Shown in pieces: positions 18,769-37,651 of a DNA stretch of 64,000 nt. The first letter of the stretch is position 1; every line of letters starts with the position of its first letter. The stretch is from Candidatus Gottesmanbacteria bacterium (lineage in GTDB: Bacteria > Patescibacteriota > Microgenomatia > UBA10105 > UBA927). A program made the position numbers and the translations under genes. The notes under the pieces were generated by a model. That model searched no databases and was not told where the DNA came from. It saw nothing but the letters and a program-made list of their open reading frames with translations. The stretch covers positions 596,084 through 660,083 of the forward strand of contig OY970230.1 in the NCBI GenBank assembly GCA_963714095.1, read 5' to 3'.

Positions 18769-18771
18769 CCT

Positions 18772-19149: not shown

Positions 19150-19155
19150 CATCGT

Positions 19156-19503: not shown

Positions 19504-19580
19504 GGTACCTGCCTGTTGACAAGGGGGAATGCATTGCGCAACAATGATATCAAGGAAAAAAACGGTACGAAGGAGGCGGT

Positions 19581-19910: not shown

Positions 19911-19919
19911 AACGCCGCA

Positions 19920-20316: not shown

Positions 20317-21762
20317 ATGAAGCGCACTGCCTTATTTTTTCTCATCTTCATTCTCGTCGGTTGGGTATTTGTCCCCCCGGCGCATGCAGCGATAAATGCA
20401 ATCCCCGGTGCCGTTGAGTTCGGAAAAACGTTCGACTCAAAAGTCAATACCGGCAGCATGAGCAAAGAGGTGTATACACCAAACACCCAGGCGTTGTATA
20501 TGGATACCGGCACATGCTTTATCGTGGGCTGCAGCATTGATCCTAAAAGCGCATTTTATAGCGGAAAAAGTGCTGTTGCGTCGGTAGGAAACGTGATCCT
20601 CGCCATGTATACCAACCCTCCTGCGGATCTGTCCCTTTGGATTCACAGCACAGCACAGGATCTGGGGTTTGAACCCAGAGAAGTACATGCCCAGGGCATC
20701 GGATTTACCGGCCTTTCCCCGCTTCTTTCGATCTGGACAATGGGCCGGAACATTTCGTACGGACTGTTGGCTGTCGTGATGATTGCCATCGGATTTATGG
20801 TGATGTTCAGAAAAAAAATCGATCCGAAAACTGTCCTAACAGTCCAGAATGCACTCCCAAAAATTGTTCTCGCGCTTCTTCTCATCACGTTTTCCTATGC
20901 AATCGCCGCTTTTCTTATTGACCTTATGTATCTTGTTATGGCTATCGTCATCAATCTCCTTGTGGGGGCAAGCAACGGAGCATTGGGCCCTCAAACCGCA
21001 GCAAAATATCTCGGGAGCGGACTGGGAACACTACTGGCTGCTCTATTTGGCGGAGGGATGAGCTCTATAGATGACCTTATGAAGCTGTTATTTTATAACA
21101 GCAATGCGCCATGGTGGAATACGCTTTCATTCGTAGTGAATGCTATATCTGGAGTGTGGGAGGCTCAGGGCGTACTTGTTAGTCTCATTGTCTCTATCAT
21201 CCTTCTTTTCGGTATCATACGCATAGCATTTATGCTAGTTGGTGCATATATCCAAATTATTATTTCGGTACTCATCTCCCCGTTTCAGCTCATGACGGAA
21301 GCCATACCTGGCGCGAACAGCTTTGCCTCTTGGATTAAAAATCTTATTGCCAATCTGGCAGTGTTCCCTGTTACCGCTGCTATGCTTCTTGTCGGGACGA
21401 TACTTACCCAATCAAACGCCGGAAACCTGTGGACTCCTCCGTTTTTAAGCTCAAGCGGAAGCCAGGGTGTTGCAGGGATCATCGGGCTCGGTGTACTTAT
21501 GACCATCCCGAATGTCGCCAATAGCATCAAAGAGGCTCTCAAGGCTAAAGCGCCGGTCAATGCGGGAGTAGGCGCTATCTTCGGCCCCGGAATCTCCGGT
21601 ACCACGGGTATTATGAATACGGCATATCAGGGAAGTATGATAAATAGCATGATTCGGGGTCACGGCGGAAAGCCAGAAACGGCAGAAGACAGTCCCCTCG
21701 CAAACATAGCAAAAGAAGTTCATGAATTGAGAGAACATATGGGCGCAGGACCAGTGGGATAA
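20317..21762 (+). CDS. VirB6/TrbL-like polytopic membrane protein
   Basis: Signal peptide (MKRTALFFLIFILVGWVFVPPAHA), then at least 6 TM helices with a large N-terminal periplasmic domain. Position directly after the pilin array. No specific motif available. Confidence 0.5.
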   Translation: MKRTALFFLIFILVGWVFVPPAHAAINAIPGAVEFGKTFDSKVNTGSMSKEVYTPNTQALYMDTGTCFIVGCSIDPKSAFYSGKSAVASVGNVILAMYTNPPADLSLWIHSTAQDLGFEPREVHAQGIGFTGLSPLLSIWTMGRNISYGLLAVVMIAIGFMVMFRKKIDPKTVLTVQNALPKIVLALLLITFSYAIAAFLIDLMYLVMAIVINLLVGASNGALGPQTAAKYLGSGLGTLLAALFGGGMSSIDDLMKLLFYNSNAPWWNTLSFVVNAISGVWEAQGVLVSLIVSIILLFGIIRIAFMLVGAYIQIIISVLISPFQLMTEAIPGANSFASWIKNLIANLAVFPVTAAMLLVGTILTQSNAGNLWTPPFLSSSGSQGVAGIIGLGVLMTIPNVANSIKEALKAKAPVNAGVGAIFGPGISGTTGIMNTAYQGSMINSMIRGHGGKPETAEDSPLANIAKEVHELREHMGAGPVG

Positions 21763-21780
21763 ATTAAATATCCGAACCCC

Positions 21781-24700
21781 TTAATGCTGCTTTTCCTCTT
21801 CTTTTATTGCTGAAGCAATTGCTGCACCAAGAAGGGCCACCAGCACAATCCAATACCCTCGTCGAATAGATGCCAACACTCTATATGGGAGAGTTACTTT
21901 AAATTCCCTCATAAGGTCATGCGCCAGGTGTTTCTTGCCTAAAAACCCACCGCGGTCCTGAGCGGTTGCGATAATAGTGGAGATTGCCTTTTCATCGAAT
22001 GCATTTCCGTGGGCGCTCCCATACTCCACCGCATATGACACGAGGTTTCCGCTGAGTTTTTTCACAATCCCTTGCCTCACCAATTCTATTTTATCCTTCG
22101 GCACACCGAATAAGCGGAGTGGTAACAACTTCACGCCTTTTTCTATTGTCTCCTCCCGCACTTCGGTCAGCTGGCGCAACCCCCACTCGACAATGCCGCC
22201 CGGGGCCCACCCGAGTGTCCGGCGGGAACGGTATTCGTTCATGCGGATATAGGTAGACAGTAAATCTGTAAATGCCTGTGCAGCGTCATCATTTCCCGTA
22301 TACCCGATCATTTCCTTCTCCATCTCAAGAAGTTTATCGATGACTTTGTTGGGATCAGGATGAAATAAGAGCTCATGATTCGACATGACTTCCCGCAAAA
22401 TGGAGGCCGCCTTATACATGCCCACGTTATCCCTCCCGCGGCGGGCCATGGAGAGCGTCCCCGCCTTATGGTAATCCGTATCTTTCCAGTCAAGATCACC
22501 CATGCGCAGCGTCAACGGAAAGTCCGTTTCTGCCCATATCTTTTCCACGCCTTTTGCTTTTTCCATCATAGTCTGGATAAATTCCTGATATTTACCGATA
22601 TCAGCGGTCATTCCCCGCTCTAAAGCAAGCCGTTCTATATACGGAGCAACCAACTGACGGAAATTTTTTCCTCCCAGATCAATATCCGGAGAAATCAACA
22701 GTAATTTATTCAGGTTGATATCATTGTTCGCCAATGACAACGCCTGGCTTAAAATGTCAAAATCCACAAGCGGCTTCCCCGCAGGAGAGACAAACTGATC
22801 TTTCAACAATTTATAGCGCTCTTCTGCCATAAATTCCATAAATATCAGCGGATCGCGCTTGCGCATTTTTTCCAACAGGGCCCTGCGCTTATTTAGCCCC
22901 TCGGGACTCTTCCTGTCGGCAGACGCGAATTGGAATGCGAGCCCCGCATTCTCGGGATCTCCCGTTGTCCCTTCTGCCTGCGCGCGGGCACGCAAGTCTT
23001 CAACAAACGATGCAAGACTTGACCGGAGCTCATCTGAAACCCCAATTTCCGCCCGCCAGGTGCTGCCGTCGTAGATACCACCGCCTTTTAATATTTGGTT
23101 ATTTAATATCTGTGCAAAGGAAATTTTGGATTTATCTTCCCATACTTTAATTGCATCCAGTGTGGCCCGCTGTTCCGGATGCATCTTTGCATAGTCACTC
23201 AACCGGTCCCACATCTTGGATTGAGAAAGCATCAACATGCTGCCGTCTTGGTTTTTATGAAACTGCGACTCCCGGTTAAATATCGCCATGGCTGTTTTTC
23301 CGGCATCGCCTCCCATATTAAACCGCTCAAAAAATGTCTGCCATGCATGTACCCGCACAAGATCCTCCAACACCTCTGAGCGCATGGGAAATTTTGCGCC
23401 TTTCCCTTCTCCCACAATGCGGTAACTGCTGGCAAGAGATACCATGTGGCGGGTATAGACAAAATCGTACCGGGCCATGAGGATTGCCATTTTGGTGTCC
23501 ATTTCCAAATCAGCGTCATTCAGCTGCTTCTCTACTAAATCATCAAGCTCTTTGCCAGATATTGTTCCGCTTTTCATACGATTACGGATTTCAATTTCTT
23601 TCTGCAGACGCATCTGTTTTTTTACCTTAATTTCAAGGATGGAAAGACCGAGGTTGTCGCGGACATCCTGTTCTTCCGTTATCTTCTTTTTAAGCGTATC
23701 TACGCGCTTTTGTTGCTCTGGCGAACGGCTCGTTCTGGCGAGAAGTGAATCTAATTCTATCTGGTACGCGTTTAATTCACTGAGTTCGTGCTCTTCTGCA
23801 ACCGACCGCACGGTCTTACGTTGCAATTCTTTTATTCTGTCCCATTTTGTACTAACCCTTTTAAACTCATGCGGATTATAGCTCCAGTCACTGTCCCAGA
23901 GTGCCACGCCGTATCCAAGCTCAATCTGTTCGTCTTTCAGTCTCGCAAGCTCCAACTTGTCATCCGAAAGGTTTTGTAAGCTGCCCCGCGGTGTCTTAGC
24001 CGCGTCAGCAATTTCGTTTTCAAGAACCTCCGCGACTTTCTTGTCTTTTTCTGATTTAATACCACCGGGTTGCTTCTGTAGTGCTTCCAACTCGTTCTTC
24101 TTTGCGTCAATGATATCGGGAGTCAAATGTATTTTTTGCTCCAAAACTTTTATCCTCTGATCCCGTTCATTTTGGCTGAGAATTCCAAGACTTTTATCTC
24201 CATCCCTTAACTGAAACCACCGCGCTCTGAGATCCGATAAATGAGTGTGAATAACATACTCATAAATCGGGAGGGCCCGGTTCACGTCTGTAAATTCGTG
24301 GAGAAAATTAAAATCATCCGGCGTCAGCTGCATATACACCTCAAGCATTTTTTCCGCCGACAACCCTTCCTGCGTAAACAGTTTATTGAGCTGATGTGCG
24401 TGCTCAACGCCAAAACGTATCCGCCTCATGTCAAGCTTCTTTTCCAACCCTGCCCCTTCGCCGTATTTCCATTCAAGAAAATGCTCGACCTCTTCCAGTC
24501 TGATCCCTTCCGTAAACGTTGGCTGTGCTTCTCCGCGCGGGGACGCAATTTTTTCCAAAAGGTATTTCTTAAACCACCTCTCTTCTCCTTTGTCTTGTTT
24601 TAACATTTCCAGATCATCCTGTTTTAAATATTGGCTGAACTCGTATGGGCCAATCGGTCTGGGATAATCTTTCCAATGACCCGAACTGTTTTTTTCAATA

Positions 24701-25644
24701 TCCTCTATAGATATACTGTTTCTCTCATATCTTCCCGCACGGGCATTCTGCCGAGCAGTTTCTAGCGCTTTAAGATATTTGTTGATGGTGGTCCGCCACG
24801 GCTGCACGTCCGCACTTGATGCCTTTCCAGCATTTACCAAATCATCAAGATGTTTCAAATCTTCCTGTAACCGCGCCTGGTCAAAAACATCCCAATACGA
24901 CTGGCCGCCTTTTTGAACGAGCTCGACTCGTTCTCCCCATTTGCCGGCAAAATCTTTCATTCCTGCCGGAACGCTCTGGCTCGACGGCAAGGCTGAAAAA
25001 TCCTTCATAACGAAATAGTTGTCCAAGTCCTCATTCGTGAGGGCGCTTGCCACGGTCGGATTCTCGTGTTCCTGCGCTTCTTCATCAATGTGCTCCCCAT
25101 AATCCTCAAGCTGATCGTCTGCACGGTTCACAAGCTCTCCGGCGGTCAGCACATTGTACGGTTCCGGCGGCTGTTGATGTAAATGTTCCATGACAAATTC
25201 ACGGGCGATCGACATATACGGCGCGGCCTCCAGAGTCCAGTTGTCCGCCTGTTTAAAAAATGTAGCCAGCGCTTCGACTTGCTGCGAGGGGGGCGTGGAT
25301 GTCAAGATGGTTCTCAGGTCCAACAGCTTCTTTTGTACTGCCTCTGCCTGCCCCGCAGCCGCAAATGTTTTGTCGTCCACTGCCACCTGCGCAAGATTCA
25401 ATAATCTTTCAGATGCCGGTAAATTTTCAAGGGTGGCTTTCGGGGTTTTCTCAAGCATTTTTACGGCAATTTCCTTCTGTTTCTTCACTACTGCCTGACG
25501 GTTGAGATTTTCAACTTTTGACGCGTTTTCCCGGGGTCGCGCCGATTTAGCCGGTTTTTCCGAAGCGGCATCCAACAGCCTCTTAAATGAGCTGGCTTTC
25601 TCGGCCGCTCCGGCTCCTCCACGTATATCACCATGTTCTGCCAT
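21781..25644 (-). CDS. giant (1287 aa) tail-anchored coiled-coil protein, function unknown
   Basis: No signal peptide or P-loop. Extremely E/K/L/D/R-rich with long heptad-like stretches. A single C-terminal TM helix (GYWIVLVALLGAAIASAI) is followed by KEEEKQH. Confidence 0.55.
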   Translation of the reverse strand: MAEHGDIRGGAGAAEKASSFKRLLDAASEKPAKSARPRENASKVENLNRQAVVKKQKEIAVKMLEKTPKATLENLPASERLLNLAQVAVDDKTFAAAGQAEAVQKKLLDLRTILTSTPPSQQVEALATFFKQADNWTLEAAPYMSIAREFVMEHLHQQPPEPYNVLTAGELVNRADDQLEDYGEHIDEEAQEHENPTVASALTNEDLDNYFVMKDFSALPSSQSVPAGMKDFAGKWGERVELVQKGGQSYWDVFDQARLQEDLKHLDDLVNAGKASSADVQPWRTTINKYLKALETARQNARAGRYERNSISIEDIEKNSSGHWKDYPRPIGPYEFSQYLKQDDLEMLKQDKGEERWFKKYLLEKIASPRGEAQPTFTEGIRLEEVEHFLEWKYGEGAGLEKKLDMRRIRFGVEHAHQLNKLFTQEGLSAEKMLEVYMQLTPDDFNFLHEFTDVNRALPIYEYVIHTHLSDLRARWFQLRDGDKSLGILSQNERDQRIKVLEQKIHLTPDIIDAKKNELEALQKQPGGIKSEKDKKVAEVLENEIADAAKTPRGSLQNLSDDKLELARLKDEQIELGYGVALWDSDWSYNPHEFKRVSTKWDRIKELQRKTVRSVAEEHELSELNAYQIELDSLLARTSRSPEQQKRVDTLKKKITEEQDVRDNLGLSILEIKVKKQMRLQKEIEIRNRMKSGTISGKELDDLVEKQLNDADLEMDTKMAILMARYDFVYTRHMVSLASSYRIVGEGKGAKFPMRSEVLEDLVRVHAWQTFFERFNMGGDAGKTAMAIFNRESQFHKNQDGSMLMLSQSKMWDRLSDYAKMHPEQRATLDAIKVWEDKSKISFAQILNNQILKGGGIYDGSTWRAEIGVSDELRSSLASFVEDLRARAQAEGTTGDPENAGLAFQFASADRKSPEGLNKRRALLEKMRKRDPLIFMEFMAEERYKLLKDQFVSPAGKPLVDFDILSQALSLANNDINLNKLLLISPDIDLGGKNFRQLVAPYIERLALERGMTADIGKYQEFIQTMMEKAKGVEKIWAETDFPLTLRMGDLDWKDTDYHKAGTLSMARRGRDNVGMYKAASILREVMSNHELLFHPDPNKVIDKLLEMEKEMIGYTGNDDAAQAFTDLLSTYIRMNEYRSRRTLGWAPGGIVEWGLRQLTEVREETIEKGVKLLPLRLFGVPKDKIELVRQGIVKKLSGNLVSYAVEYGSAHGNAFDEKAISTIIATAQDRGGFLGKKHLAHDLMREFKVTLPYRVLASIRRGYWIVLVALLGAAIASAIKEEEKQH

Positions 25645-25697
25645 AGCTACTACGATTGTATCGCTTGTTACGAACCCTGCGCAAGGAAGAAGTTGTG

Positions 25698-26465
25698 TTA
25701 CTGAAGAATCGGCAGATGGTGTTTGAAGTCATTCGCGCGGACGCGCGCAAGAACCCTTTCGACAACGTCTTTGGAAAATCCCGCGGCAACAATTTCATCG
25801 GGTGATTTTTTACCGTCAAACGCGAGCGCGAATATTTCATCCGCATCTTTGTACGTGAACCCAAACTCCCCCTCGTCCGTTTGCCCTTCCCACAGGCCCG
25901 CCGTGGGTTTTTTCGTCAAAATTGCTTCCGGCACGCCCACATATTTCGCAAGCTCATACACCTGCGTCTTATAGAGACTGCGCAGCGGCTCAATATCACT
26001 TGCCTCGTCCCCAAACCGCGTAAAGTAGCCCAAAAGGTGCTCGCTTTTATTTTCCGTACCCACGACCAATGCGTGCCGTTTTTTGGCATGGTCATAAAGA
26101 ATCATCATGCGCGCACGGGCCATGAGATTTCCCTTCCGGATATTATCCATGCCAAATTCTTTTCCTATAATCGGATCGAGAATCGGTTTAATATCCACCC
26201 GTGTAACCCGCGAAGGTGAAATTTTCAACAGTTCAATGACGCTCATGGCATCCAGCGTCGCCTGTGTACTCAGGCTTCCGTACGGAAGAAGTACCGGATA
26301 CACGTGCTCTGACCCAAGCGCGCGTACAGCCAATACAATGCTCGTGGACGAGTCAAGTCCTCCGGAAAGAGCAATGACTGCGTCGGAAAAACCAGCCGCT
26401 ACAAAAGATTGTTTCAAAAAAGCGATAAGTCGTTCAGAAACGGTTTTCGGATCAACGGATATCAT
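25698..26465 (-). CDS. nadE: NH3-dependent NAD+ synthetase
   Basis: PP-loop SGGLDSS and a NadE fold. Start trimmed to MISVDPKTV (the longer ORF overlaps nadD by 41 nt). Confidence 0.8.
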   Translation of the reverse strand: MISVDPKTVSERLIAFLKQSFVAAGFSDAVIALSGGLDSSTSIVLAVRALGSEHVYPVLLPYGSLSTQATLDAMSVIELLKISPSRVTRVDIKPILDPIIGKEFGMDNIRKGNLMARARMMILYDHAKKRHALVVGTENKSEHLLGYFTRFGDEASDIEPLRSLYKTQVYELAKYVGVPEAILTKKPTAGLWEGQTDEGEFGFTYKDADEIFALAFDGKKSPDEIVAAGFSKDVVERVLARVRANDFKHHLPILQ

Positions 26466-27021
26466 ATAATTTGTGTTGATGAATATATGCAAGCACGCGC
26501 TCCGGCACTAATCCTATCACAGAATGTCCCCGATGTAAGCGCTTGCGGATGATGGTCGAAGAAATATTGCTGGTTACCAGATCGGGAGAACGGACTTGGG
26601 TAAAACTTGTCGGTAAAGACGAGGATATGGGATGACCATTGCGCGGGAACACCAAAAATTTCACTTCGCGTGCAAGAATTTCGTGATCTTTCCAGCGGTA
26701 AAACTCCCTCACAATGTCGCTACCCACAATCCAATAGAACTCGTGAGCATATTTCGCCTTCAGCCTCTGCACGGTTTCAATAGTATAGCTTTTTGCCTGC
26801 AGGTGAATTTCTTCATCGGACACGGTAATTGCCGGCTCTTCTATAAGCCGCGCCATGGCGAGTCGGTCACGGGACGCGGACACCGTTGTGTCCCAATTAT
26901 GGGCAAAGTACGGCATAAGCCAAATTTCATCCAATCCCAAAATCTCCTTTGTCTGACGGGCAACCAAAAGGTGCCCAAAATGCGGGGGGTCAAAAGAACC
27001 ACCGAGAATGCCTATTTTCAT
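26452..27021 (-). CDS. nadD: nicotinate-nucleotide adenylyltransferase
   Basis: GILGGSFDPPHFGHL (H/T-x-G-H nucleotidyltransferase motif) and C-terminal SSTxIR. Confidence 0.85.
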   Translation of the reverse strand: MKIGILGGSFDPPHFGHLLVARQTKEILGLDEIWLMPYFAHNWDTTVSASRDRLAMARLIEEPAITVSDEEIHLQAKSYTIETVQRLKAKYAHEFYWIVGSDIVREFYRWKDHEILAREVKFLVFPRNGHPISSSLPTSFTQVRSPDLVTSNISSTIIRKRLHRGHSVIGLVPERVLAYIHQHKLYDIR

Positions 27022-27031
27022 ACGACCGCTA

Positions 27032-29209
27032 TTATAGCTTTTTCGCGTACCGCTCGCGACTTGCGCGTATCACTTTCTCGCGGTTTTGGTTGCGGCTGCG
27101 CGGCAGGGGCAGGGTGACTGCGGAAAAAGGGTTACTCGTGTGATTGTCGATGGAAAGCTTCAAAACTATCTGAAAATTCCCCAGTCCCACAAGTTCCGAC
27201 TCCTCATATGACCCGCCGAACTCACGCGACAGAAGCCGCGCGTCGCCCGCCCCAACACTGAAGGTGACCATGGAACCGGCATTGCCAAAAATTGCCTTCT
27301 GCACATCTTCTTCAATCTGCCCGATATACTGGTTGGCAAGTGTAAGATTGAGGCGGTATTTTCGCGCCTCGGATAATATTTTGATAAACGACTGCGTCGC
27401 AAAATTCTGAAACTCATCGACAAAGAGGTAAAAATCGCGGCGTTCCTCCTCCCCCACATATACACGGTTCATGGCAGCAAGCTGCATTTTGGTAATAATC
27501 ATGGCACCAAGAAGCGCACTTGCATCCTCGCCGAGTTTCCCCTGGGAGAGGTTCACAATCACTATCTTTCCTTTGTTCATCATGTCTTCCAAATCAATCG
27601 TGGAAATTGGCGATCCGACAATGTTTCTAATCGTTTGTGAGGACAAAAATTGTCCGACCTTATTGAGAATCGGCGAGGTGGCTTCCGTTCGCATCTGCGG
27701 ACTCATTTTTGCAAATTCGTTCAACCAAAAATTCTTGAGGACGCGGTCGTCAAGTTTTTCAAGCACTTTTTTACGATACCGGTCGTTGGTTAATAATTCC
27801 GGGACTTGCAGGAGTGTTGAATCCGGCACGTGAAGAAGCGTGAGAATGGTGTTTCTAAGGATATATTCAAGCCGCGGCCCCCAGCTGTAGTGGTACAGTT
27901 TATAAAAAATGGACACGATGCCTGATGCAATAAGCTCGCGGTATGCCGGATTTTTCATTTCCAGCGGATTGAGATGAAAAGGATATTCCAAATCAGAGGG
28001 GTCCAAATACGCCACATCATTAATCCTGTGGGAGGGAATAAAATCCAAAAGGATATCACAGAGGTCCCCGTGTGGATCAATAACTGCCATCCCTTCCCCG
28101 TTTTTCATGTCGTTGATTGCCATATTGGCGATCATCGTTGACTTTCCGGTGCCGGTTTTCCCCATAATATACAGGTGTTTCCGCCTATCATCCTTTTTAA
28201 GACCGAACGTCGTGGTTGCGTTTTTAAACTCCGTCCGGGCAAAAAAATTAATCTTCTTTTTTTCCTCCTCGCTACTTGTGACGACCGGCAGATTTTCCGG
28301 TGCCTCCCCAGGAAGACTTGCGCCCCAAGAAATATTTTTAATCATCGCAAGCGTTGCCCCCGGCGGATGCCAGAGGGAGGCAAGCTCACTGGCGTTTAAT
28401 ACCTGATGGCGGGGTCCCGCATCTGCCGCCCTACTGACAAACGCACCCTCAAGTTTCTTTTTTTGCCAAAAAGCCGGTTCTGCGGTTGTAAGGCCGTTAC
28501 CATCTCCCAGCGTATAAACACCAAATGTCCCACCTACGCTGTACAAAAGTTCTTTTGCCCGCTCGGAGGAAGGAGCGACTCCTAACAACCGAATGGCGGT
28601 AATAAATCCCGGTTGAGCAATTTTTGATTCAATAAGGCGCGCCTGCGGATGCGAGCGTGTTCTGCCCGTTGTCGATGTCGGATCCGGAATACCGCGGGCA
28701 ACAACGGCTGCCGCGTTTCTTTGCCAATTCGTTCCGGCTGGCGCAACGCGGATTTGAACTGCAAGCGCCTCGCCTGCCGGAAGCTTCCCCATGGCACCCA
28801 ACACGCTTGCCAGAAGATCCAGGTCCTTCACTTCCCTGTACGTTCTCAGGGGATAATAAAATGAATTGGTGAACATCAATTGTCCTGACGCATGCGGAAG
28901 CTCCAAAAAATGCGGCGCCCAATCGGAAACCGGCGCCAAAAGCAGTTTTGGATACTGTGCCGTCAACTGACTCTCCAGATATCCCAGCGCTTTTGACGGA
29001 ACGCCGACAAAAAAATGGATCCTGGAATTTACCGCAACGATTTCGAAACTGAAAAACCACGGTCCGTGCCTGGGGCCGAAAAATCTGGATAACAATCCTC
29101 CGTACCCACCGCCGGAGGCAAGCGCCGCAAAAATCTGTTCCATTGCAGACGCCGGTTCTTCCGACTCGCGTGAGTTCTTTACTTCCAATAGTACCAGGGA
29201 TGAATCCAT
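27032..29209 (-). CDS. T4SS coupling-protein-like / DUF87-family P-loop ATPase (VirD4/TraG/HerA superfamily)
   Basis: An N-terminal domain of about 380 aa, then Walker A (IMGKTGTGKST), VIDPHGD, and Walker B (YLFVDEFQNF). No TM helices seen. Confidence 0.55.
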   Translation of the reverse strand: MDSSLVLLEVKNSRESEEPASAMEQIFAALASGGGYGGLLSRFFGPRHGPWFFSFEIVAVNSRIHFFVGVPSKALGYLESQLTAQYPKLLLAPVSDWAPHFLELPHASGQLMFTNSFYYPLRTYREVKDLDLLASVLGAMGKLPAGEALAVQIRVAPAGTNWQRNAAAVVARGIPDPTSTTGRTRSHPQARLIESKIAQPGFITAIRLLGVAPSSERAKELLYSVGGTFGVYTLGDGNGLTTAEPAFWQKKKLEGAFVSRAADAGPRHQVLNASELASLWHPPGATLAMIKNISWGASLPGEAPENLPVVTSSEEEKKKINFFARTEFKNATTTFGLKKDDRRKHLYIMGKTGTGKSTMIANMAINDMKNGEGMAVIDPHGDLCDILLDFIPSHRINDVAYLDPSDLEYPFHLNPLEMKNPAYRELIASGIVSIFYKLYHYSWGPRLEYILRNTILTLLHVPDSTLLQVPELLTNDRYRKKVLEKLDDRVLKNFWLNEFAKMSPQMRTEATSPILNKVGQFLSSQTIRNIVGSPISTIDLEDMMNKGKIVIVNLSQGKLGEDASALLGAMIITKMQLAAMNRVYVGEEERRDFYLFVDEFQNFATQSFIKILSEARKYRLNLTLANQYIGQIEEDVQKAIFGNAGSMVTFSVGAGDARLLSREFGGSYEESELVGLGNFQIVLKLSIDNHTSNPFSAVTLPLPRSRNQNREKVIRASRERYAKKL

Positions 29210-29233
29210 AATTTGATTTTAGCATAAGTAACC

Positions 29234-29262
29234 GGGGTAAGCCCGTGAAAACTCTAATTATC
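29234..29262. promoter_or_regulatory. 8-bp-arm inverted repeat CGTGAAAA-N13-TTTTCACG in divergent intergenic region
   Basis: Read directly from the sequence. Lies between the start of the coupling ATPase (minus) and the PrgI-like gene (plus), making it a candidate operator. Confidence 0.25.
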
Positions 29263-29327
29263 ACTTTTCACGGTCCTGATGCGCTTTGTGCTATTGCGTG
29301 TCGCAAAAAACACCCGTAAAATAAAAA

Positions 29328-30665
29328 ATGAGCCCCTCTAAACACGGGGGAATGTTTGCATTAAGAAATATGGAACAACATCCTGTACCTCAAAACGTTA
29401 CCACGTTTCAATTCCGCCTCATCGGAGACATGACCATCAAACAGTTCGGGTATCTGGCGGGAGGGGCAATTTTAGGCTACATCATGTATAAATTACCACT
29501 GCCGTTTTTCTTTACCTGGCCACTGGCGCTTGTTTTTGCGGTCGGCGGTATCGGATTTGCCTTTGTGCCCATTGAGGAGCGCCCGATGGACGTGTGGGTT
29601 CTATCTTTTATTAAAAGCGTCTACTCTCCCACCCAATTCATCTGGTCAAAACATGTGCAAGAACCCCAGATCGCAAATTCCGCTCCTGTAGCGGTGCAAC
29701 AGAGCGTTAGCCCTGCGCCGTCAACGAGAAAAGGTGACATTCTCAACACTATTTTTCTTCCGGCCGCGCCGGCGGGCGGGCCGACTCCTGCAACCCGCGG
29801 AACTTCTGCCGCGCAAGGCCCTCTCACGCGATCTTCCAAACAAGGAAGCGCGTTTGATTGGTTTTTCAGTTTTTTAACGCCAAAACCAAAAACGGCGTCT
29901 CCGCCGGCTCCTCCGCCAACGACAGGACCGTTACAGGCAGGACAATGGTCGCAGGTGCCGGCGCGGCATATGGATTTCACACCTCCGCCGATCGTCAGAC
30001 CCGCAAAAAAAGTCACCCCGGCACCTGTGAATACGCAACAAAAAGAATCGGTCATTGAAGATAAATTAAAAAAGATTTCCTCTGAACTGAAGGATAAAAA
30101 CGCGACAGCGTCCCAGGCTACTCAACTTCAGACTCAACTGGACCAACTGCTTTCCGAGAGAGAGAAAATGGTTCAGGAGCTGGAAGCACTCCGCAAGCCG
30201 GCGGGCGCGCCGATCGTTGAGCCCGTGGTCGTAAACACCCAATCAACAACTACGACCACCACACAGACAGCGGCCTCGCCGACCATTCAGATTATTGCAC
30301 CCGGACGGGCGACAAAAGTTGGTCTTCCGCGCCTCACCACATTCCCCAATATTGTCACGGGAATCGTCAAAGATAAAGACAAAAACCTTCTGCCCGGCGT
30401 CCTTGTGACGGTAAAGGACAAAGACGGTGTTCCGCTTCGGGCCCTCAAAACGAACCGCCTGGGACAATTTGCGGCGTCAACTCAACTTCCCAACGGCACG
30501 TATCTTGTGGAAATAGAGGATCCGAGATTCCGCTATACGTTTGATCGGGCCCAAATTACCCTTAACGGGTCAATCGTACCCGCTTTGGAAATTTTTGCAA
30601 AAACAGAACAAGAAATAACACGGGCCAAGCTCGAAAAAGAACTGTTTGGAAAACCAAACATATAA
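29328..30665 (+). CDS. PrgI/VirB3-like membrane protein with Pro/Thr-rich linker and C-terminal extracytoplasmic domain
   Basis: N-terminus FQFRLIGDMTIKQFGYLAGGAILGYIMYKLPLP..WPLALVFAVGGIGFAFVPIEERPMDVWV resembles PrgI-family (VirB3-like) proteins. It is followed by a P/A/T-rich low-complexity region and a coiled-coil segment. Confidence 0.5.
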   Translation: MSPSKHGGMFALRNMEQHPVPQNVTTFQFRLIGDMTIKQFGYLAGGAILGYIMYKLPLPFFFTWPLALVFAVGGIGFAFVPIEERPMDVWVLSFIKSVYSPTQFIWSKHVQEPQIANSAPVAVQQSVSPAPSTRKGDILNTIFLPAAPAGGPTPATRGTSAAQGPLTRSSKQGSAFDWFFSFLTPKPKTASPPAPPPTTGPLQAGQWSQVPARHMDFTPPPIVRPAKKVTPAPVNTQQKESVIEDKLKKISSELKDKNATASQATQLQTQLDQLLSEREKMVQELEALRKPAGAPIVEPVVVNTQSTTTTTTQTAASPTIQIIAPGRATKVGLPRLTTFPNIVTGIVKDKDKNLLPGVLVTVKDKDGVPLRALKTNRLGQFAASTQLPNGTYLVEIEDPRFRYTFDRAQITLNGSIVPALEIFAKTEQEITRAKLEKELFGKPNI

Positions 30666-30670
30666 ATACT

Positions 30671-31330
30671 ATGCCAGAACCCATTGTTCCGATTCGATCA
30701 TCCACACAACTATTCAGCGAAATAGAAACTGTTGACCGCGACATTATCATGTACACAGACGGTTCGTGTTCTATGGTTATAAGCGCAACTGCTGTTAATT
30801 TTGACTTGCTTTCCGAAAAAGAACAGGATGCGATCATTTATGCATACGCGGAATTATTAAATTCCCTCTCGTTCCCGATTGAAATTCTTATCCGCACGCA
30901 GCACAAAGACATTACCGCATATCTCTCTTCGCTGGAAGAAAAGGAAAAGAAACAGAAAAACCCGAAGATGGCAGCGGCTATTCATGGGTACCGACAATTT
31001 GTTGCGGCGACCGTTAAAGAGAAGGACGTGCTGGATAAAAAGTTTTACCTTGTGATACCTTTTTCGTTTCTTGAGCTGGGTATGGGAGCAAATGTCTTTT
31101 TGGGCGGGTCGAAAAAACGCAGTCTCCCGTACCCGAGACCATATATTTTTGAACGGGCGGTTACCGTCCTGACACCCAAAGGGGACCACATAATCCGCCT
31201 CCTGAGCCGCATAGGACTCCGCGCAAAACAGTTAACAAACGATCAGCTTATCCGGCTGTTTTATGAAATTTATAACCAGGGAGCCCCAATCGTAAACGAG
31301 GACAGTGTCCAAAAAGCGATCGGGACATGA
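30671..31330 (+). CDS. hypothetical cytoplasmic protein embedded in T4SS cluster
   Basis: 219-aa ORF between the VirB3-like and VirB4 genes. No recognisable motif. Confidence 0.45.
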   Translation: MPEPIVPIRSSTQLFSEIETVDRDIIMYTDGSCSMVISATAVNFDLLSEKEQDAIIYAYAELLNSLSFPIEILIRTQHKDITAYLSSLEEKEKKQKNPKMAAAIHGYRQFVAATVKEKDVLDKKFYLVIPFSFLELGMGANVFLGGSKKRSLPYPRPYIFERAVTVLTPKGDHIIRLLSRIGLRAKQLTNDQLIRLFYEIYNQGAPIVNEDSVQKAIGT

Positions 31331-31340
31331 TGACATAACT

Positions 31341-33302
31341 ATGAATATGCCGAAAAATGTTCAGGCTATACTGAAAACTTTTGTCAATCCCGCTCAGGAT
31401 CCCCTTTCGGGGAAAACCCCCACCGGAGGGCCCGCCTCGCCGGGTCAAGACGGGCCACTCACTGTTAAAGATCTGGTCGCCCCGCCGGCAATTGAGGTGG
31501 ATTTCGACACTATTAAAATCGGCGACCGGTATTTCCGGACGCTGTTTGTCGCCGGATACCCCCGGTTTGTGTCTGCAAACTGGCTTGAGCCGCTCATATC
31601 GTTCACCCACACGCTCGACATTGCGATGTACGTGTATCCCACCAAAAGCGAGGAGGTTTTGGAAAATCTCAAACGCAAGGTCGGCGAAATGGAAGCGACT
31701 ATCCAATCAGACGTGAATCGCGGCAGGGTTGTCGAACCCTCTGTTGAAGTTGCGCTCGAAGATGCGGTTTCTCTCCAGCAGGAATTGGCGAAGGGTGCAC
31801 AGCGCTTTTTCCAGTTTGCCCTCTATATCACCATACCGGCACAAACCGTTGAAGAGCTTAATAAAACGACGAAGCAGGTAGAGGCAACGCTCGCGGCGCT
31901 GCTTATTTTGACAAAACGGGCGATCCTCCAGATGGAAGAGGGGTTCAAAACAACGCTCCCTATGGGGCGGGACATGTTGATGATTACGCGCAATATGGAC
32001 ACCACGTCGCTTGCCACCACGTTTCCGTTTACCACATCGGAGCTTACGGCTAATGAGGGAATTCTTTACGGTATCAACGAGCACAATGAGAGCCTGGTTA
32101 TTTTTGATCGGTTTACGCTTGAAAATGCTAACACCGTCGTGTTCGGAAAATCCGGAAGCGGTAAAAGCTATATGGTGAAACTGGAAATTATGCGGAGCCT
32201 CATGTTTGACACGGAGGTAATCGTCATAGATCCGGAATCCGAATACGAGGCTCTCTGTCACGCACTCGGCGGCGAATATATCCGCTTCCATTTCGGCTCT
32301 GCCACAAAAATTAATCCCTTTGATCTCTCGTTATATACCCAGACCGCAGCAGGGAATGAAGAAAGCGAGCTGAATCAAAAAATACTGTCTTTACATGGAT
32401 TTTTCCGCGTCGTTATGGGCAAACTTACCCCAACTGAGGATGCTCTTCTGGACCGCGCACTTATCCTTACGTATAAACAAAAAGGCATTACCCCTGATCC
32501 TGCCACTCAAATGCTCGAGCCCCCGCTCATGGAAGATTTATACAAATCCCTGATTGGCATGGAAGACACGGGTGCCCAGGGCATGGCTGACCGCATAGAA
32601 AAATTTGTCAAAGGGAGCCTTGTCGGCATTTTCGACCAGCAGACCAACGTAGAAATACGCAATCAATTAACGGTGTTTTCGATCCGCGATCTTGAAGATG
32701 AACTGCGACCCATCGCCATGTATCTTATTCTTGACTACATCTGGACGAAGGTGCGGCGCGACACCAAAAGAAGAATCCTCGTTGTCGATGAGGCGTGGTA
32801 TATGATGAAATATCCCGACTCGGGCGAATTTTTAAACTCCATCGCCAAACGGGCGCGCAAATATTACCTTGGCCTTACAACCATTACTCAGGACGTCGAG
32901 GACTTCTTATCCGTAGACCTCGGAAAGTCCATCATCCAAAACAGCAGCGTTCAGATACTTCTCAAGCAGTCGTCTGCCGCCATTGACAAGATTGCCGACG
33001 TGTTTTATTTATCCGAAGGAGAACAACATTTGCTCCTTTCGTCCGATATCGGCGAGGGTCTATTTTTTGCCGGACCGGCCCATGCGGCCATCCGTGTCAT
33101 TTCCTCACCGGAAGAACACGCTCTTGCTACCACCAAGCCTCAAGATGCAGAACGAAAGGTGGAACAAGAAAAACAGGACGTGCTAAACGCCTCCGCCGCC
33201 AATCCCCCGCCTCACGTGATGATGGAAACAGAAGAATCCAAGCCTACGCGCCCGTCATTTACCGTTGAAACGGTGTCCCAACCGCCGGACAACACAAAAT
33301 AA
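31341..33302 (+). CDS. VirB4/TrbE/CagE-family conjugal transfer ATPase
   Basis: N-terminal VirB4 domain, Walker A (VVFGKSGSGKSY), VIDPESEY, Walker B (ILVVDEAWYMM), and TTITQ... C-terminal motifs. Start trimmed to MNMPKNVQ. Confidence 0.8.
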   Translation: MNMPKNVQAILKTFVNPAQDPLSGKTPTGGPASPGQDGPLTVKDLVAPPAIEVDFDTIKIGDRYFRTLFVAGYPRFVSANWLEPLISFTHTLDIAMYVYPTKSEEVLENLKRKVGEMEATIQSDVNRGRVVEPSVEVALEDAVSLQQELAKGAQRFFQFALYITIPAQTVEELNKTTKQVEATLAALLILTKRAILQMEEGFKTTLPMGRDMLMITRNMDTTSLATTFPFTTSELTANEGILYGINEHNESLVIFDRFTLENANTVVFGKSGSGKSYMVKLEIMRSLMFDTEVIVIDPESEYEALCHALGGEYIRFHFGSATKINPFDLSLYTQTAAGNEESELNQKILSLHGFFRVVMGKLTPTEDALLDRALILTYKQKGITPDPATQMLEPPLMEDLYKSLIGMEDTGAQGMADRIEKFVKGSLVGIFDQQTNVEIRNQLTVFSIRDLEDELRPIAMYLILDYIWTKVRRDTKRRILVVDEAWYMMKYPDSGEFLNSIAKRARKYYLGLTTITQDVEDFLSVDLGKSIIQNSSVQILLKQSSAAIDKIADVFYLSEGEQHLLLSSDIGEGLFFAGPAHAAIRVISSPEEHALATTKPQDAERKVEQEKQDVLNASAANPPPHVMMETEESKPTRPSFTVETVSQPPDNTK

Positions 33303-33308
33303 CGCATT

Positions 33309-35738
33309 ATGGCAGACATCGACACAACCGTGTATGCATCGACAGACGAAATACGACGGGCGCTCGGAATGCTCAACGACCTACGAGAAAATAAACCGCT
33401 CGAGTTTGAGGGGATATTAGCGAAGAATCCCGATATAAATCCATTCATGCGCTGGCCGCTCCTTAAAGAGCCGACAGAGGCATTTTTACGCTTTTTTGAA
33501 ACTGCTACGCCGGTATTGGAGGGGGGCGCGGAGACCTCAACTCCTGCTCTTGGTCCATATACTGAAACCGTCAGCTCGCTCGGGTCGCAACGAAATATTG
33601 ACGCGAAAAAACTCGACGAGCTTATTGATGTATTTAATAAAGAGTATGCCGAGGCAAAGGAGGGGCGGGTCAACGCGGCCGCGGCGTCAAAAAAATTTGT
33701 CTCCAACTTTCTTGAATACGCAAAAAAGGCGGGCGTGCCGCTAACCGAAACACAGACTCCTCTGCCCCCGGCGCCACAACCTATCGAGGAGACTGAGAGT
33801 GCTCCGACTCAATATTCCGAACAGCCGCTCACGCAAACGCCCGCAATAGAAGCGCTCACGGGCACACCCGTTCCGCCGGAGCGCATAGAGGAAATTGCCG
33901 CTGCCGTCATTCAGCGACCTGAGCCACCCGATGCAAAAATAGGCATGTTCCATCTGTTAGAAACGTTTAGTTCTGAACAACCGGATAAAGCTGTCGATGA
34001 GATGCTTCCGCGCGCGGTTGCGGTTATAGAGGCATCGAGGGTTCTCGCTACCCCCGGGGGGTCTTATCCGATCGAAAAATCTTTTTCCGTACTTGCCGCC
34101 AATGGTTTTCAGGAAAGCGCTGCTCGGATTTTTGACGCTGTCGTCCCCGCTGCGGTCAAAGAGTCGATTGTAAGTGAAATGATCCTTCAACCTCTGGAGG
34201 CCATTGTTAACCATCCGGAATCCCTTCCAAAAAACATCATGGGTGAGATGATAAGCCGATGGGGATCAAACTTTGTTGATTCTCCGTGGTTTAACCAGCT
34301 GCGCGCCGACGCCAACCGCATGATGATCGACCAAAAAGGCGAAGCAAAAATTAAAAGCAGGGCTGCGCTTTTTGTTTCCGATCTTGCCACAACTGTCTTT
34401 CATGGGCCACTGGATAAAAACGCAGTTGGGGCAGACAAATTAGTTAAGATCTTAAATGGGGACGTTCCGCCTCTCGGCGGGGGCGCTGCAACCAAAAACA
34501 AACCGGCTCGGGCACCAGACAAGAACGTTTTACCTCAAGAGGCAAGATCTGCCGCCATAGATAAATTAATTCTTGCCCTAAATAGCGGTACTCCTTCTCA
34601 GGGCGGCGGCGGGGTTGCCTTAAGTTATAACGTTATTGCCTATATGGAAACATATAGGATTGTTGCTTCTCAAGGGGTCCCGATGGGTAACGTGTCCCGC
34701 TACGGCGGCGTCGTTCTCGGCTACGGGGGGCAGCTGATCAGGGGTGGAGCCAATTACGCCATTAAGACTGGGGCTAAGGCGATAGCAAAAAAGGTGGCGG
34801 CGAAAGCGGCCACCACTGCCGTTGTTGAGGGTGGGGTGGTCGCGGCCGGCACAGCTCTCGCGCCGGGAGTAGGAACCCTCATTGCCCTTGCTGTTGATTT
34901 TGTGGGTAAACTGGCGACAAATCTGATTAAAAAAGGTACCGCTGTTCTCAAAAGCGTTGCCTTCATGGGAAACAGCAATAGACCGGAGGACAATCTTCTC
35001 GCTGTTGGCCTTGGCGTCATTGCCCTTTTATTCTTTCTCCCGATTCTTCCGCTATTTAACATCCCCGCCTTTAACCAATCTATGATCGACACGTCACTTG
35101 CCACCAGTATAGGCGGGCCAACGGGGGCTACTGGTGCCGTCGGCGCCGCAACCCTTTCCTGTGCTGATACAAGCGGGGCCTACGTATACCAACGAGATCC
35201 CCTGTGGGCCGACTACACGTGTCAAGACGCGAACCCAAGTCAGCCCGCCTGCTCTGCCGCAAATACGTCTTGTACGATCGGCGACTCGGGGTGCGGGAGC
35301 GCCAGCACGACCATAATTTTAAAAGCGTTTGGAGACAACACCGACGTAAAAACGGTGTGGAACCAACAGCACTCAACCGGCGGATATCAATATGACGATG
35401 TCAGCAGTCCGCCTGGTTGCGCATCATATACCGGAGCCCCGCTAAGCTCATTCATGAGCGCGGGACTTTCCGTTGTCAGTCTCGGCGTAGACGGGTGGAG
35501 CGAGGCAGCGCACATACTTAACCCTGGGTGCGGACTCATTCTTGCCCTTGGACATGCTCATATTAACGGAGTAACGACCGGTCATTTTATCGTTATTACA
35601 GGAATTCATGAAGAAAACGGGCAAGTTACATCCGTGGACACACTGGATCCTGCCCAACCAACCTTAACCACACAAACTATTGTTGGCGCGAACGCAACAT
35701 TTACCGTGGATGTTGGCTTGTGGGGAGTAGTAAAATAA
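33309..35738 (+). CDS. large membrane protein with C-terminal papain-like (Cys/His) peptidase domain; candidate cell-wall hydrolase of the T4SS (VirB1 functional analog)
   Basis: 809 aa with a Gly/Ala-rich region and TM helices around residues 480-590. The C-terminus carries DSGCGSASTTIILKAFG (nucleophile Cys context) and a downstream HAHINGVTTGHFIV (His), consistent with CHAP/C39/NlpC-like folds. Confidence 0.45.
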   Translation: MADIDTTVYASTDEIRRALGMLNDLRENKPLEFEGILAKNPDINPFMRWPLLKEPTEAFLRFFETATPVLEGGAETSTPALGPYTETVSSLGSQRNIDAKKLDELIDVFNKEYAEAKEGRVNAAAASKKFVSNFLEYAKKAGVPLTETQTPLPPAPQPIEETESAPTQYSEQPLTQTPAIEALTGTPVPPERIEEIAAAVIQRPEPPDAKIGMFHLLETFSSEQPDKAVDEMLPRAVAVIEASRVLATPGGSYPIEKSFSVLAANGFQESAARIFDAVVPAAVKESIVSEMILQPLEAIVNHPESLPKNIMGEMISRWGSNFVDSPWFNQLRADANRMMIDQKGEAKIKSRAALFVSDLATTVFHGPLDKNAVGADKLVKILNGDVPPLGGGAATKNKPARAPDKNVLPQEARSAAIDKLILALNSGTPSQGGGGVALSYNVIAYMETYRIVASQGVPMGNVSRYGGVVLGYGGQLIRGGANYAIKTGAKAIAKKVAAKAATTAVVEGGVVAAGTALAPGVGTLIALAVDFVGKLATNLIKKGTAVLKSVAFMGNSNRPEDNLLAVGLGVIALLFFLPILPLFNIPAFNQSMIDTSLATSIGGPTGATGAVGAATLSCADTSGAYVYQRDPLWADYTCQDANPSQPACSAANTSCTIGDSGCGSASTTIILKAFGDNTDVKTVWNQQHSTGGYQYDDVSSPPGCASYTGAPLSSFMSAGLSVVSLGVDGWSEAAHILNPGCGLILALGHAHINGVTTGHFIVITGIHEENGQVTSVDTLDPAQPTLTTQTIVGANATFTVDVGLWGVVK

Positions 35739-35752: not shown

Positions 35753-36373
35753 ATGTTTAAAAAACTATATATTCCTTTAATAATATTTTTGGCTGTGTTG
35801 ATCGCGACTGCTGCATACATGCTCTACCCAAAAACCCCTCCGCTCCGGGTTGTTGCCACTAGCCCGACAGGCGGGGCTTCTTTAAACCCCTTCCTCCCCG
35901 TTGTCATCACGTTTAATCAGACGGTGAACCAAAACGAGGTCGCGATCACCATAGGTCCAACAACGGCTGTCAATATCACCGCCTCTGGAAAATCTATTCA
36001 AATAACCCCCCAAACGAAATTTAATCCAAACACACAATACAATATAAATGTTGGAACTAATCCTCCATACGCACTTACTTTTACTACCGAAAGCTCTGTG
36101 GAAAATGCCCCGGGTTGGAATCAGTTAATGAATCAGGCGTTTCAACAGTATGAACAGCAAAACGCAACCCAAGATGCGGCACTTAAAAGCATCAGAACCC
36201 ACGTTCCTCTTCAAGAAGGCGGGTTTACCATAAACTATTCCTATGCCAACAACACCTATACAATCACGCTTTCACCCCCGTACGATCAAAACAAGGAAAG
36301 TTTTTTGAATTGGTTAAATCAAAGCGGGGTTACTAATTTAACGAATCTCCGTTTAAATTATATTAATCAATAA
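35753..36373 (+). CDS. hypothetical secreted/membrane-anchored protein
   Basis: N-terminal TM/signal segment (LYIPLIIFLAVLIATAAYML). Asn/Thr-rich, beta-rich, possibly Ig-like. No known motif. Confidence 0.45.
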   Translation: MFKKLYIPLIIFLAVLIATAAYMLYPKTPPLRVVATSPTGGASLNPFLPVVITFNQTVNQNEVAITIGPTTAVNITASGKSIQITPQTKFNPNTQYNINVGTNPPYALTFTTESSVENAPGWNQLMNQAFQQYEQQNATQDAALKSIRTHVPLQEGGFTINYSYANNTYTITLSPPYDQNKESFLNWLNQSGVTNLTNLRLNYINQ

Positions 36374-37492: not shown

Positions 37493-37599
37493 TCTATATC
37501 CTCCAATAGTAGTAATAATAGAAAGCGGCGTGGAAAAGTGTATGCTTTTTCGGTGCGCCTGTCAACGAGCCAAAAGAATAAAAAGAAGATGGTGATGAT

Positions 37600-37641: not shown

Positions 37642-37651
37642 GTGGAAAACT

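Follow-up and report, generated by a model that had tools for sequence, protein, structure and literature searches.

A probable Patescibacteria-type, relaxase-less type IV secretion locus beside the replication origin of a Candidatus Gottesmanbacteria genome

A 64-kb stretch (hereafter, the window) of the ca. 1.09-Mb genome of a Candidatus Gottesmanbacteria bacterium (Microgenomatia, Patescibacteria) carries, beside the replication origin oriC, a set of genes that very probably encodes a type IV secretion system (T4SS) of the kind known from Patescibacteria. This system would be chromosomal and relaxase-less, derived from the conjugation machinery of monoderm bacteria (mating-pair formation type FATA, MPF-FATA), and would serve an epibiotic lifestyle rather than plasmid transfer. 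The initial annotation of the sequence had proposed a minimal T4SS of the Gram-positive or candidate phyla radiation type, likely not involved in plasmid conjugation, and this proposal is supported by protein profiles, by synteny across 80 related loci and by the literature (PMC12102498, PMC10633639, PMC12857230). Since the locus matches systems described by Quinonero-Coronel et al. 2025 and Wang et al. 2023, the finding is a correct rediscovery of what is already published.

Window proteins were compared with Pfam, NCBIfam and PDB sequence profiles, and AlphaFold2 (AF2) models were compared with the PDB by Foldseek. Scanning for VirB4 with one genome per species returned 226 confirmed relatives, the best 80 of which were used as loci for comparison (L001-L080). 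These 80 are 59-85% identical to the window VirB4 and all belong to metagenome-assembled genomes (MAGs) of ultrasmall genome size, mostly labelled Gottesmanbacteria, Microgenomates or Patescibacteria, with many other labels being generic or evidently wrong bin labels. For synteny, every window protein was searched against the 80 loci with tblastn; contig ends truncate many of these loci. The six components named in the initial annotation were all recovered where it had placed them, and the features of the locus and of the adjoining origin are as follows (for PF18895, T4SS_pilin, the gathering cut-off is 26.6 bits).

18062-18391, plus strand: VirB2-like pilin paralogue 0, two hydrophobic helices (PF18895, 1.1e-5, 25.9 bits, just under the gathering cut-off)
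18397-18768, plus strand: VirB2-like pilin paralogue 1 (PF18895, 4e-4, 20.8 bits, below the cut-off; aligns with the other paralogues)
18772-19149, plus strand: VirB2-like pilin paralogue 2 (PF18895, 2.2e-6)
19156-19503, plus strand: VirB2-like pilin paralogue 3 (PF18895, 1.3e-7)
19581-19910, plus strand: VirB2-like pilin paralogue 4 (PF18895, 4.3e-8; 94% identical to the L003 orthologue)
19920-20276, plus strand: VirB2-like pilin paralogue 5 (PF18895, 5.8e-10; weak match to the Mycoplasma pilin-like family Mbov_0395 of integrated conjugative elements)
20317-21762, plus strand: candidate VirB6-like polytopic membrane protein, 481 aa (fold-level evidence only)
21781-25644, minus strand: giant protein, 1287 aa, predicted to be all-alpha and cytoplasmic with a C-terminal tail anchor; its gene faces the VirB6-like gene tail-to-tail
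25698-27021, minus strand: nadE and nadD, housekeeping NAD genes (Pfam NAD_synthase, 1e-69; CTP_transf_like, 1.6e-21)
27032-29209, minus strand: VirD4-type coupling ATPase, 725 aa, without transmembrane segment (Pfam and PDB profile matches)
29328-30665, plus strand: PrgI/VirB3-like protein, 445 aa (Pfam PrgI, 4.4e-9, 37.2 bits against a cut-off of 27; CarboxypepD_reg, 2e-8)
30671-31330, plus strand: TrsD-like protein, 219 aa (NCBIfam TrsD, 8.4e-6)
31305-33302, plus strand: VirB4 ATPase of the MPF-FATA/CD1110 type, 665 aa (NCBIfam CD1110 family; Pfam P-loop_TraG)
33309-35738, plus strand: predicted membrane hydrolase in the VirB1 position, 809 aa (Pfam Peptidase_C39_2, residues 658-778, 1.4e-5)
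35753-36373, plus strand: bitopic protein with an Ig-like domain, 206 aa, N-terminal transmembrane segment (Pfam Big_5, 1.8e-7)
36383-37492, minus strand: dnaN (Pfam), starting 645 bp after the hydrolase gene
37652-39037, minus strand: dnaA (Pfam)
36383-39076: oriC region with dnaN, dnaA and DnaA-box clusters at 37600-37641 and 39058-39076 (boxes, GC-skew minimum)

The ATPases and their immediate partners

The 665-aa product is a VirB4 ATPase, as initially annotated. It matched the NCBIfam CD1110 family of the monoderm element CTn2 (3e-119, 399 bits against a cut-off of 325) and, among PDB profiles, Thermoanaerobacter VirB4 (4ag5, 2e-46) and R388 TrwK (6e-9), with intact Walker A and Walker B motifs at residues 281 and 491. 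Its probable start is the ATG at 31341. The CD1110 match covers only model positions 185-730, and the 219-aa product encoded just upstream, which had been left as an unknown protein and is identified here as TrsD-like, matched the N-terminal part of VirB4 models, namely positions 103-233 of the Mbov_0397 family (VirB4_plasma, 1.4e-7) and positions 15-118 of CD1110. TrsD thus corresponds to a split-off N-terminal piece of VirB4, and it adjoins virB4 in 78 of the 80 loci. A programmed frameshift joining the 219-aa open reading frame (ORF) to VirB4 was considered and rejected, the two being separate genes in about 70 of the 80 loci and their apparent 26-nt overlap vanishing if VirB4 starts at the ATG at 31341. 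In a single MAG (L024, 4174-6636, plus strand), TrsD and VirB4 form one 820-aa ORF, which may be an assembly error or else a natural fusion, in which case TrsD would be supported as VirB4's N-terminal domain.

Upstream of TrsD, the PrgI/VirB3-like gene probably starts near 29370 and encodes a PrgI domain (residues 19-103) followed by a linker containing 18% Pro, a probable coiled coil at about 234-330 (weak NCBIfam matches of coiled-coil type) and a CarboxypepD_reg beta-sandwich (343-402). More than 70 of the 80 loci keep PrgI and the beta-sandwich combined, and a few encode them as two genes. A hydrophobic hairpin of two helices spans residues 37-85 and is followed by no other transmembrane segment, so that the extension and the N-terminus should share one side of the membrane. 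Judging from VirB3-VirB4 fusions in other systems, that side is the cytoplasmic one. Thus, the PrgI/VirB3-like identity and the long Pro-rich extension reported by the initial annotation were both borne out, while the description of this extension as extracellular is doubtful.

The 725-aa ATPase, described earlier as DUF87/VirD4-like, exceeded the Pfam cut-offs for DUF87, TrwB_AAD_bind (35.8 bits; cut-off 20.5), T4SS-DNA_transf (27.3; 20.1) and TraG-D_C (26.5; 22), and matched TrwB (1e9r, 5e-7) and DotL in the PDB. With its Walker A (residue 350) and Walker B (residue 594) motifs intact, it completes a pair of ATPases that both match VirB4/VirD4 models. It misses every NCBIfam equivalog cut-off for type IV coupling proteins (T4CP), and no transmembrane or hydrophobic segment is predicted in its sequence, in contrast to the N-terminal anchor typical of VirD4/TrwB proteins. 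The first 330 aa or so form a conserved, soluble domain for which PDB profiles gave no match. The gene was found in 38 of the 80 loci and is missing at this position in the three closest relatives (L001-L003), consistent with the non-essentiality of coupling proteins and their usually distant location reported for the phylum (PMC12102498). Together with the missing anchor, this absence suggests that the coupling ATPase may be accessory or exapted.

Chromosomal setting of the locus

Four perfect TTATCCACA DnaA boxes occur in the 64 kb, three of which flank dnaA (37600, 37612 and 39058) and are accompanied by two boxes with a single mismatch. The minimum of the cumulative GC skew falls in the dnaA/dnaN region. 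Both signals locate oriC about 1.9 kb beyond the hydrolase gene, the last component named initially, in agreement with the earlier statement that the set adjoins dnaN, dnaA and oriC within about 2 kb. The same gene order recurs in dozens of related genomes: pilin array, VirB6-like gene, giant ORF (minus strand), nadE/nadD (minus), T4CP (minus), PrgI, TrsD, VirB4, large membrane protein, small bitopic protein, dnaN (minus) and dnaA (minus). Among the 80 loci, matches were obtained for TrsD in 78, PrgI in 77, dnaN and dnaA in 58, T4CP in 38 and the VirB6-like protein in 37, and nadE/nadD occupy the same position in 20-37. The pilin and VirB6-like genes and those from PrgI to the Big_5 protein lie on the plus strand, pointing to dnaN/dnaA, and VirB4 points towards dnaN/dnaA in all 58 loci holding both. 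From this orientation, the genes would be transcribed head-on to the replication fork.

The kinship of the VirB4 with the conjugative CD1110/CTn2 family, the presence of a VirD4-type coupling protein with a DNA-binding all-alpha domain, and the collinearity of the VirB3-TrsD-VirB4-hydrolase order with the tra and trs operons of pIP501 and pGO1 (partly documented in PMC12857230) could all be explained by an integrated conjugative element (ICE), or the remnant of one, inserted near oriC and mediating DNA transfer now or formerly. This explanation is largely refuted and very improbable. No family of relaxases, MOB proteins, integrases or recombinases, nor of VirB8, VirB9, VirB10 or VirB11, was matched by the main non-overlapping ORFs of at least 150 aa in the 64-kb window, so that the earlier observation that relaxase and VirB8-11 homologues are not recognisable, and that the set is chromosomal and devoid of integrase, holds for these ORFs. 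The window showed neither a relaxase together with an oriT nor ICE boundaries. The GC content of the block equals that of the flanking mevalonate and replication genes, the housekeeping genes nadD and nadE lie inside the set, and the same order beside dnaN/dnaA is found in 58 of the 80 loci, from diverged genomes. In addition, few relaxases are known from the phylum (109 across 3,035 genomes; PMC12102498). The interleaved NAD genes, uniform GC content and shared synteny, in the absence of integrase and relaxase, point to ancestral chromosome rather than an island or an ICE. The term "island" used in the initial annotation has therefore been abandoned, a genomic island being ruled out by composition and synteny.

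The missing canonical parts (VirB8, relaxase and the transmembrane domain of the coupling protein) might alternatively be taken as signs of a decaying, non-functional relic of an old conjugation system. This view is refuted by conservation and is practically untenable: all ORFs and Walker motifs are intact, VirB4 retains 59-85% identity across the whole class, gene order is strictly conserved, the system is kept in genomes of about 1 Mb, and it is essential in Southlakia (PMC10633639).

Pilins, VirB6-like candidate and other envelope-associated products

Besides the core and the coupling ATPase, the locus encodes a series of products predicted to be associated with the cell envelope. The component list of the initial annotation was incomplete in this respect, having overlooked six tandem pilin genes (18062-20276) and two pilin fusions (6984-8712). 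The six small two-helix T4SS_pilin genes, four above the gathering cut-off and two below, lie directly upstream of the VirB6-like gene; the array is located about 8 kb upstream of the PrgI-TrsD-VirB4 operon. The paralogues are 27-33% identical to the first, with a mean column identity of 39% in an alignment including the pilin modules of the two fusions. The start of paralogue 5 is probably the ATG at 19962, as the L003 orthologue begins with MADW. Scans for promoters and terminators gave counts no higher than those of shuffled sequences, save for one near-consensus promoter-like site before the first pilin (18026-18055; TTGACA-18-TACAAT, 11/12 positions), and were not used as evidence. Pilins of the Gottesmanbacteria lineage (window 18062-19910; L003 and L042) start with a short M-x-x-(V/L)-(F/L)-A-Q segment devoid of a signal-peptide hydrophobic core, and those of more distant relatives have full Sec leaders ending in A-Q; the leader appears to have been truncated in Gottesmanbacteria.

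Three further genes lie upstream of the array:

6984-7820 and 7984-8712, plus strand: two head-pilin fusion genes (278 and 242 aa), PF18895 at the C-terminus
17440-17997, minus strand: ECF-like (extracytoplasmic function) sigma factor (Pfam Sigma70_r2 and r4_2), divergent from the pilin array

Each fusion has a signal peptide, its own Cys-rich head and a pilin module. The last 351 nt of both genes are 100% identical (7469-7819 and 8361-8711) and their flanking sequences are unrelated, which indicates a recent gene conversion or a recombining cassette. Their 187 relatives are 154-485 aa long and have variable heads, some of them Filamin or fn3. With the array counted, the system extends over at least 18.0-36.4 kb, and the fusions form outliers near 7-9 kb.

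The 481-aa product that follows the array begins with a signal peptide and an outside domain of about 120 aa and has 5-6 predicted transmembrane helices, in keeping with the polytopic membrane protein initially annotated here as VirB6/TrbL-like. It had no match in Pfam (E up to 5), NCBIfam or PDB sequences, even with a family profile, and its homologues, at least 748 in number, are all unannotated. An AF2 model built from 47 sequences (predicted local distance difference test, pLDDT, 76.5) was compared with 350,542 PDB chains, and the five best matches were stalk chains of R388 TrwJ/VirB5-TrwI/VirB6 (Foldseek probability 0.92-1.0, E 0.011-0.5, target-normalised template modelling (TM) score 0.35-0.51). 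The lengths of these chains and their consecutive order in a pentamer suggest that they are the VirB6 subunit. The VirB6 link is thus made at the level of fold, with moderate support. The published survey found few VirB6 homologues in Microgenomatia, "suggesting extreme sequence divergence" (PMC12102498), and the 481-aa family may be considered as a good candidate for this missing subunit.

Tail-to-tail with this gene is that of the 1287-aa protein, whose single hydrophobic segment is C-terminal (residues 1263-1281). It matched nothing in Pfam (E up to 5) or NCBIfam, and its family profile found nothing meaningful among PDB sequences. An exhaustive HMMER search of 1.84 billion proteins collected 72 cluster representatives of the family, of which a word-indexed search gave only 2. 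The AF2 model of residues 330-1287 is all-alpha (pLDDT 84.5, predicted TM-score 0.84) and has no assignable fold in the PDB, the best Foldseek match having a probability of 0.11 and a TM-score below 0.1. More than 30 loci have an ORF of 900-1470 aa in the same tail-to-tail arrangement with the VirB6-like gene, but only about half of these ORFs are detectably homologous to the 1287-aa protein. The latter is counted here as part of the locus, not as a proven subunit.

Beginning 7 nt after virB4, the 809-aa gene encodes a cytoplasmic scaffold of about 560 aa, a transmembrane segment (561-582) and a Cys-rich outside head of C39-like papain fold, a topology favoured by the charge distribution. This confirms the membrane protein with a C-terminal Cys/His peptidase-like domain described at first, the motifs around Cys662 and His759 being consistent with a catalytic pair. 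Its N-terminal region had no match in Pfam (E up to 5) or NCBIfam. In an iterative search, 40 positional orthologues were found to share about 270 aa of the N-terminal region and the membrane region, but not the C-terminal head. Heads read from the C-terminal tails of ten orthologues were Peptidase_M23 in four (2e-18 to 1e-7), CHAP in two (2.4e-7, and 1.9e-4, which misses the Pfam cut-off), SLT_3 lysozyme-like in one (weak) and HExxH metallopeptidase-like in one (weak), with no Pfam hit in two; L008 alone shared the C39-like head. Hydrolase heads are therefore exchanged in a modular way among orthologues. Gram-positive VirB1-like hydrolases such as PrgK and TraG consist of an intracellular domain and a transmembrane segment, followed by CHAP, SLT, muramidase or LytM heads (PMC12857230), and the swapping of M23, CHAP and SLT-like heads on one scaffold mirrors this layout. 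By analogy, the 809-aa protein may open the cell wall.

The 206-aa bitopic protein occupies the slot held in pCF10 by the VirB8-like prgL; Big_5 was its only match, and its family was found in 11 loci. Across L001-L080, the small bitopic gene between VirB4 and dnaN alternates between this family of about 200 aa and an unrelated one of about 330 aa.

Further gene groups lie elsewhere in the window. Next to the pilin fusions, 2362-6906 (minus strand) encodes a SpoIID-domain protein (586 aa, a wall-remodelling enzyme type), a bPH_2 protein and an unannotated 607-aa protein, which may form an accessory envelope cluster. A contiguous mevalonate-pathway operon (9075-16571, minus strand) comprises undecaprenyl pyrophosphate (UPP) synthase, diphosphomevalonate decarboxylase, a GHMP kinase-NUDIX fusion, a second GHMP kinase, thiolase, and hydroxymethylglutaryl-CoA (HMG-CoA) synthase-like and HMG-CoA reductase genes, and is followed by a Yip1-family membrane protein. 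Just across the origin, GC content falls from about 0.49 to 0.34-0.44 (39148-64000), and this region is dense in surface-glycan genes, including an RGP-like protein, two Wzy_C ligases, two PMT_2 proteins and several GT2 and GT4 transferases, along with an Alg14/Alg13-like split pair, a radical-SAM/SPASM enzyme, an epimerase and a 914-aa pyrroloquinoline quinone (PQQ) beta-propeller protein. It may represent a horizontally acquired or fast-evolving glycosylation island.

Relation to known systems and possible function

In a survey of 3,035 Patescibacteria genomes, Quinonero-Coronel et al. 2025 (PMC12102498) described a monophyletic VirB4 clade nested in MPF-FATA, accompanied by TrsD, PrgI/VirB3, VirB6 and VirB2-like arrays of 2-11 genes, abundant in Microgenomatia; relaxases were nearly absent, and the T4SS lay close to dnaA/dnaN in Paceibacteria and Microgenomatia. 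Using transposon sequencing (Tn-seq), Wang et al. 2023 (PMC10633639) found the T4SS and its pilin array to be indispensable to epibiotic growth in the Saccharibacterium Southlakia epibionticum, and a 2025 review (PMC12857230) counts the Patescibacteria systems as a recognised T4SS type. The window resembles these systems (PMC12102498; Southlakia SEML1_0006-0019, PMC10633639) in its MPF-FATA VirB4 with adjoining TrsD and PrgI/VirB3, VirB2-like array and candidate VirB6, in the peptidase or hydrolase directly downstream of virB4, in the absence of relaxase, and in its chromosomal location, near dnaA/dnaN as in other Microgenomatia. Several differences leave the kind of system unchanged. The coupling ATPase of the window is two genes from VirB4, whereas only 148 of 5,713 T4CP homologues in the survey were near virB4; VirB3 adjoins VirB4 in 77 of the 80 related loci, in contrast to the low VirB3-VirB4 association surveyed in Microgenomatia; and the VirB6 candidate is invisible to hidden Markov models (HMMs), being found by fold only, and is paired with a giant tail-anchored protein. 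The additions made here are small: a fold-level VirB6 candidate for Microgenomatia, hydrolase-head swapping, head-pilin fusions and an orphan-fold giant protein beside the VirB6 candidate.

The Gram-positive MPF-FATA systems (pCF10 prgH-L; pIP501 traC-G and traJ; pGO1 trsC-G; Clostridioides difficile CTn2 CD1110) share with the window a CD1110-type VirB4, the order VirB3-(TrsD)-VirB4-hydrolase-small bitopic protein, and a hydrolase made of intracellular domain, transmembrane segment and extracellular head. The coupling ATPase TraJ of pIP501 presumably also has no transmembrane domain of its own. For TraJ, membrane anchoring by TraI has been proposed (PMC12857230). Unlike these systems, the window has no relaxase, oriT, PrgB-type surface adhesin or recognisable NTF2-type VirB8; it possesses VirB2-like pilins, which Gram-positive systems lack; its hydrolase head is C39-like instead of SLT, CHAP or LytM; and the system is fixed in the chromosome at oriC, not carried on a mobile element. 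With the minimal diderm systems of R388 and Agrobacterium (VirB, MPF-T), the window has in common VirB2-like pilins, VirB3, VirB4, a putative VirB6-like fold and VirD4, but it lacks VirB5, VirB7, VirB9, VirB10, VirB11 and the outer-membrane complex, and sequence similarity to R388 is limited to the ATPase cores (TrwK and TrwB, with the E-values given above).

Although the parts of the system are present in the window, its assembly, its substrate and the direction of transport, whether DNA or nutrients are imported or effectors exported, are matters that we infer. VirB4 and TrsD, held at the membrane by PrgI, would power the assembly of a VirB6-based translocon, and VirB4 would also extract the VirB2-like pilins and polymerise them into a pilus or conduit. 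A passage through the peptidoglycan would be opened by the hydrolase, and the soluble coupling ATPase, where present, would feed substrate to the channel. Such a machine would move macromolecules between the ultrasmall cell and its host, or attach the two, without transferring plasmids. The "DNA uptake or host attachment" evoked in the initial annotation is a hypothesis, here as in the literature, and a 2024 perspective (PMC11665869) called the role of Patescibacteria T4SS "completely unknown".

Two more specific functions can be weighed. Variable pilins and a hydrolase head tuned to the host surface would suit a protein-effector exporter, an adhesion pilus aimed at the host, or both, a function that we regard as a real but tentative possibility. 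It would fit the six divergent pilin paralogues, the fusions with variable Cys-rich, Filamin or fn3 heads and the swapping of the hydrolase head. Moreover, between the window and L003 the envelope-associated parts mostly diverge fastest (hydrolase 46% identity, VirB6-like 54%, PrgI 62%; VirB4 84%, TrsD 81%), and effector delivery is among the speculations cited in PMC11665869. However, the analysis yielded no candidate effector, no Patescibacteria T4SS is known to form a pilus, and pressure from phages or of immune type would also be expected to diversify surface proteins. The other function, a dedicated DNA-import machine like Helicobacter ComB or Crenarchaeota Ced, supplying nucleotides to a cell unable to make them, is the hypothesis favoured in PMC12102498 and PMC11665869, but from the present data it appears rather unlikely. 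In its favour, the coupling ATPase has a domain of DNA-binding type and weakly resembles CedD (9e-9), and VirB4 weakly resembles CedB (3.5e-13). Yet both scores fall far under the Ced family cut-offs (CedB 49 against 700 bits, CedD 34.5 against 600), no VirB8, VirB9 or VirB10 was recognised in the window, the coupling ATPase is missing at the locus in the closest relatives and is non-essential in Southlakia (PMC12102498), and window data do not indicate a direction of transport.

It could further be proposed that the T4SS of Gottesmanbacteria and Microgenomatia carries undescribed, lineage-specific modules that set host specificity, namely swapped heads, head-pilin fusions, and a platform of giant protein and coupling ATPase, although we consider this speculative and improbable as a whole. 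The swapped extracellular head could cut the host's wall rather than the cell's own, the fusions may act as pilus-displayed adhesins whose shared 351-nt module could recombine, and the giant tail-anchored protein, together with the coupling ATPase and its new N-terminal domain, may form a substrate-recruitment platform.

Several points weigh against the reading of the locus as a chromosomal, relaxase-less Patescibacteria T4SS serving an epibiotic lifestyle. The relaxase negative spans 64 kb of a ca. 1.09-Mb genome, and no VirB8-like protein was identified in the window ORFs, as far as their sequences can tell. The structural similarity behind the putative VirB6 is weak (E no better than 0.01), and the coupling ATPase, besides lacking the usual membrane anchor, is missing from this position in the three closest relatives. 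The head-on transcription deduced above fits poorly with a simple argument of a high-expression location, and function has not been demonstrated for any Microgenomatia system.

The Patescibacteria T4SS is among the few conserved envelope machines of a huge, mostly uncultured and host-dependent radiation, and it is essential in the one species tested. The window leaves that picture unchanged and offers a clean, complete Microgenomatia example. It supplies a candidate for the VirB6 subunit, rarely detected by HMM surveys in this lineage, and shows that no other part of the machine is exchanged as readily as the hydrolase head. Models or preparations of the complex should include two conserved, unannotated partners, namely the 1287-aa protein and the coupling ATPase's N-terminal domain.

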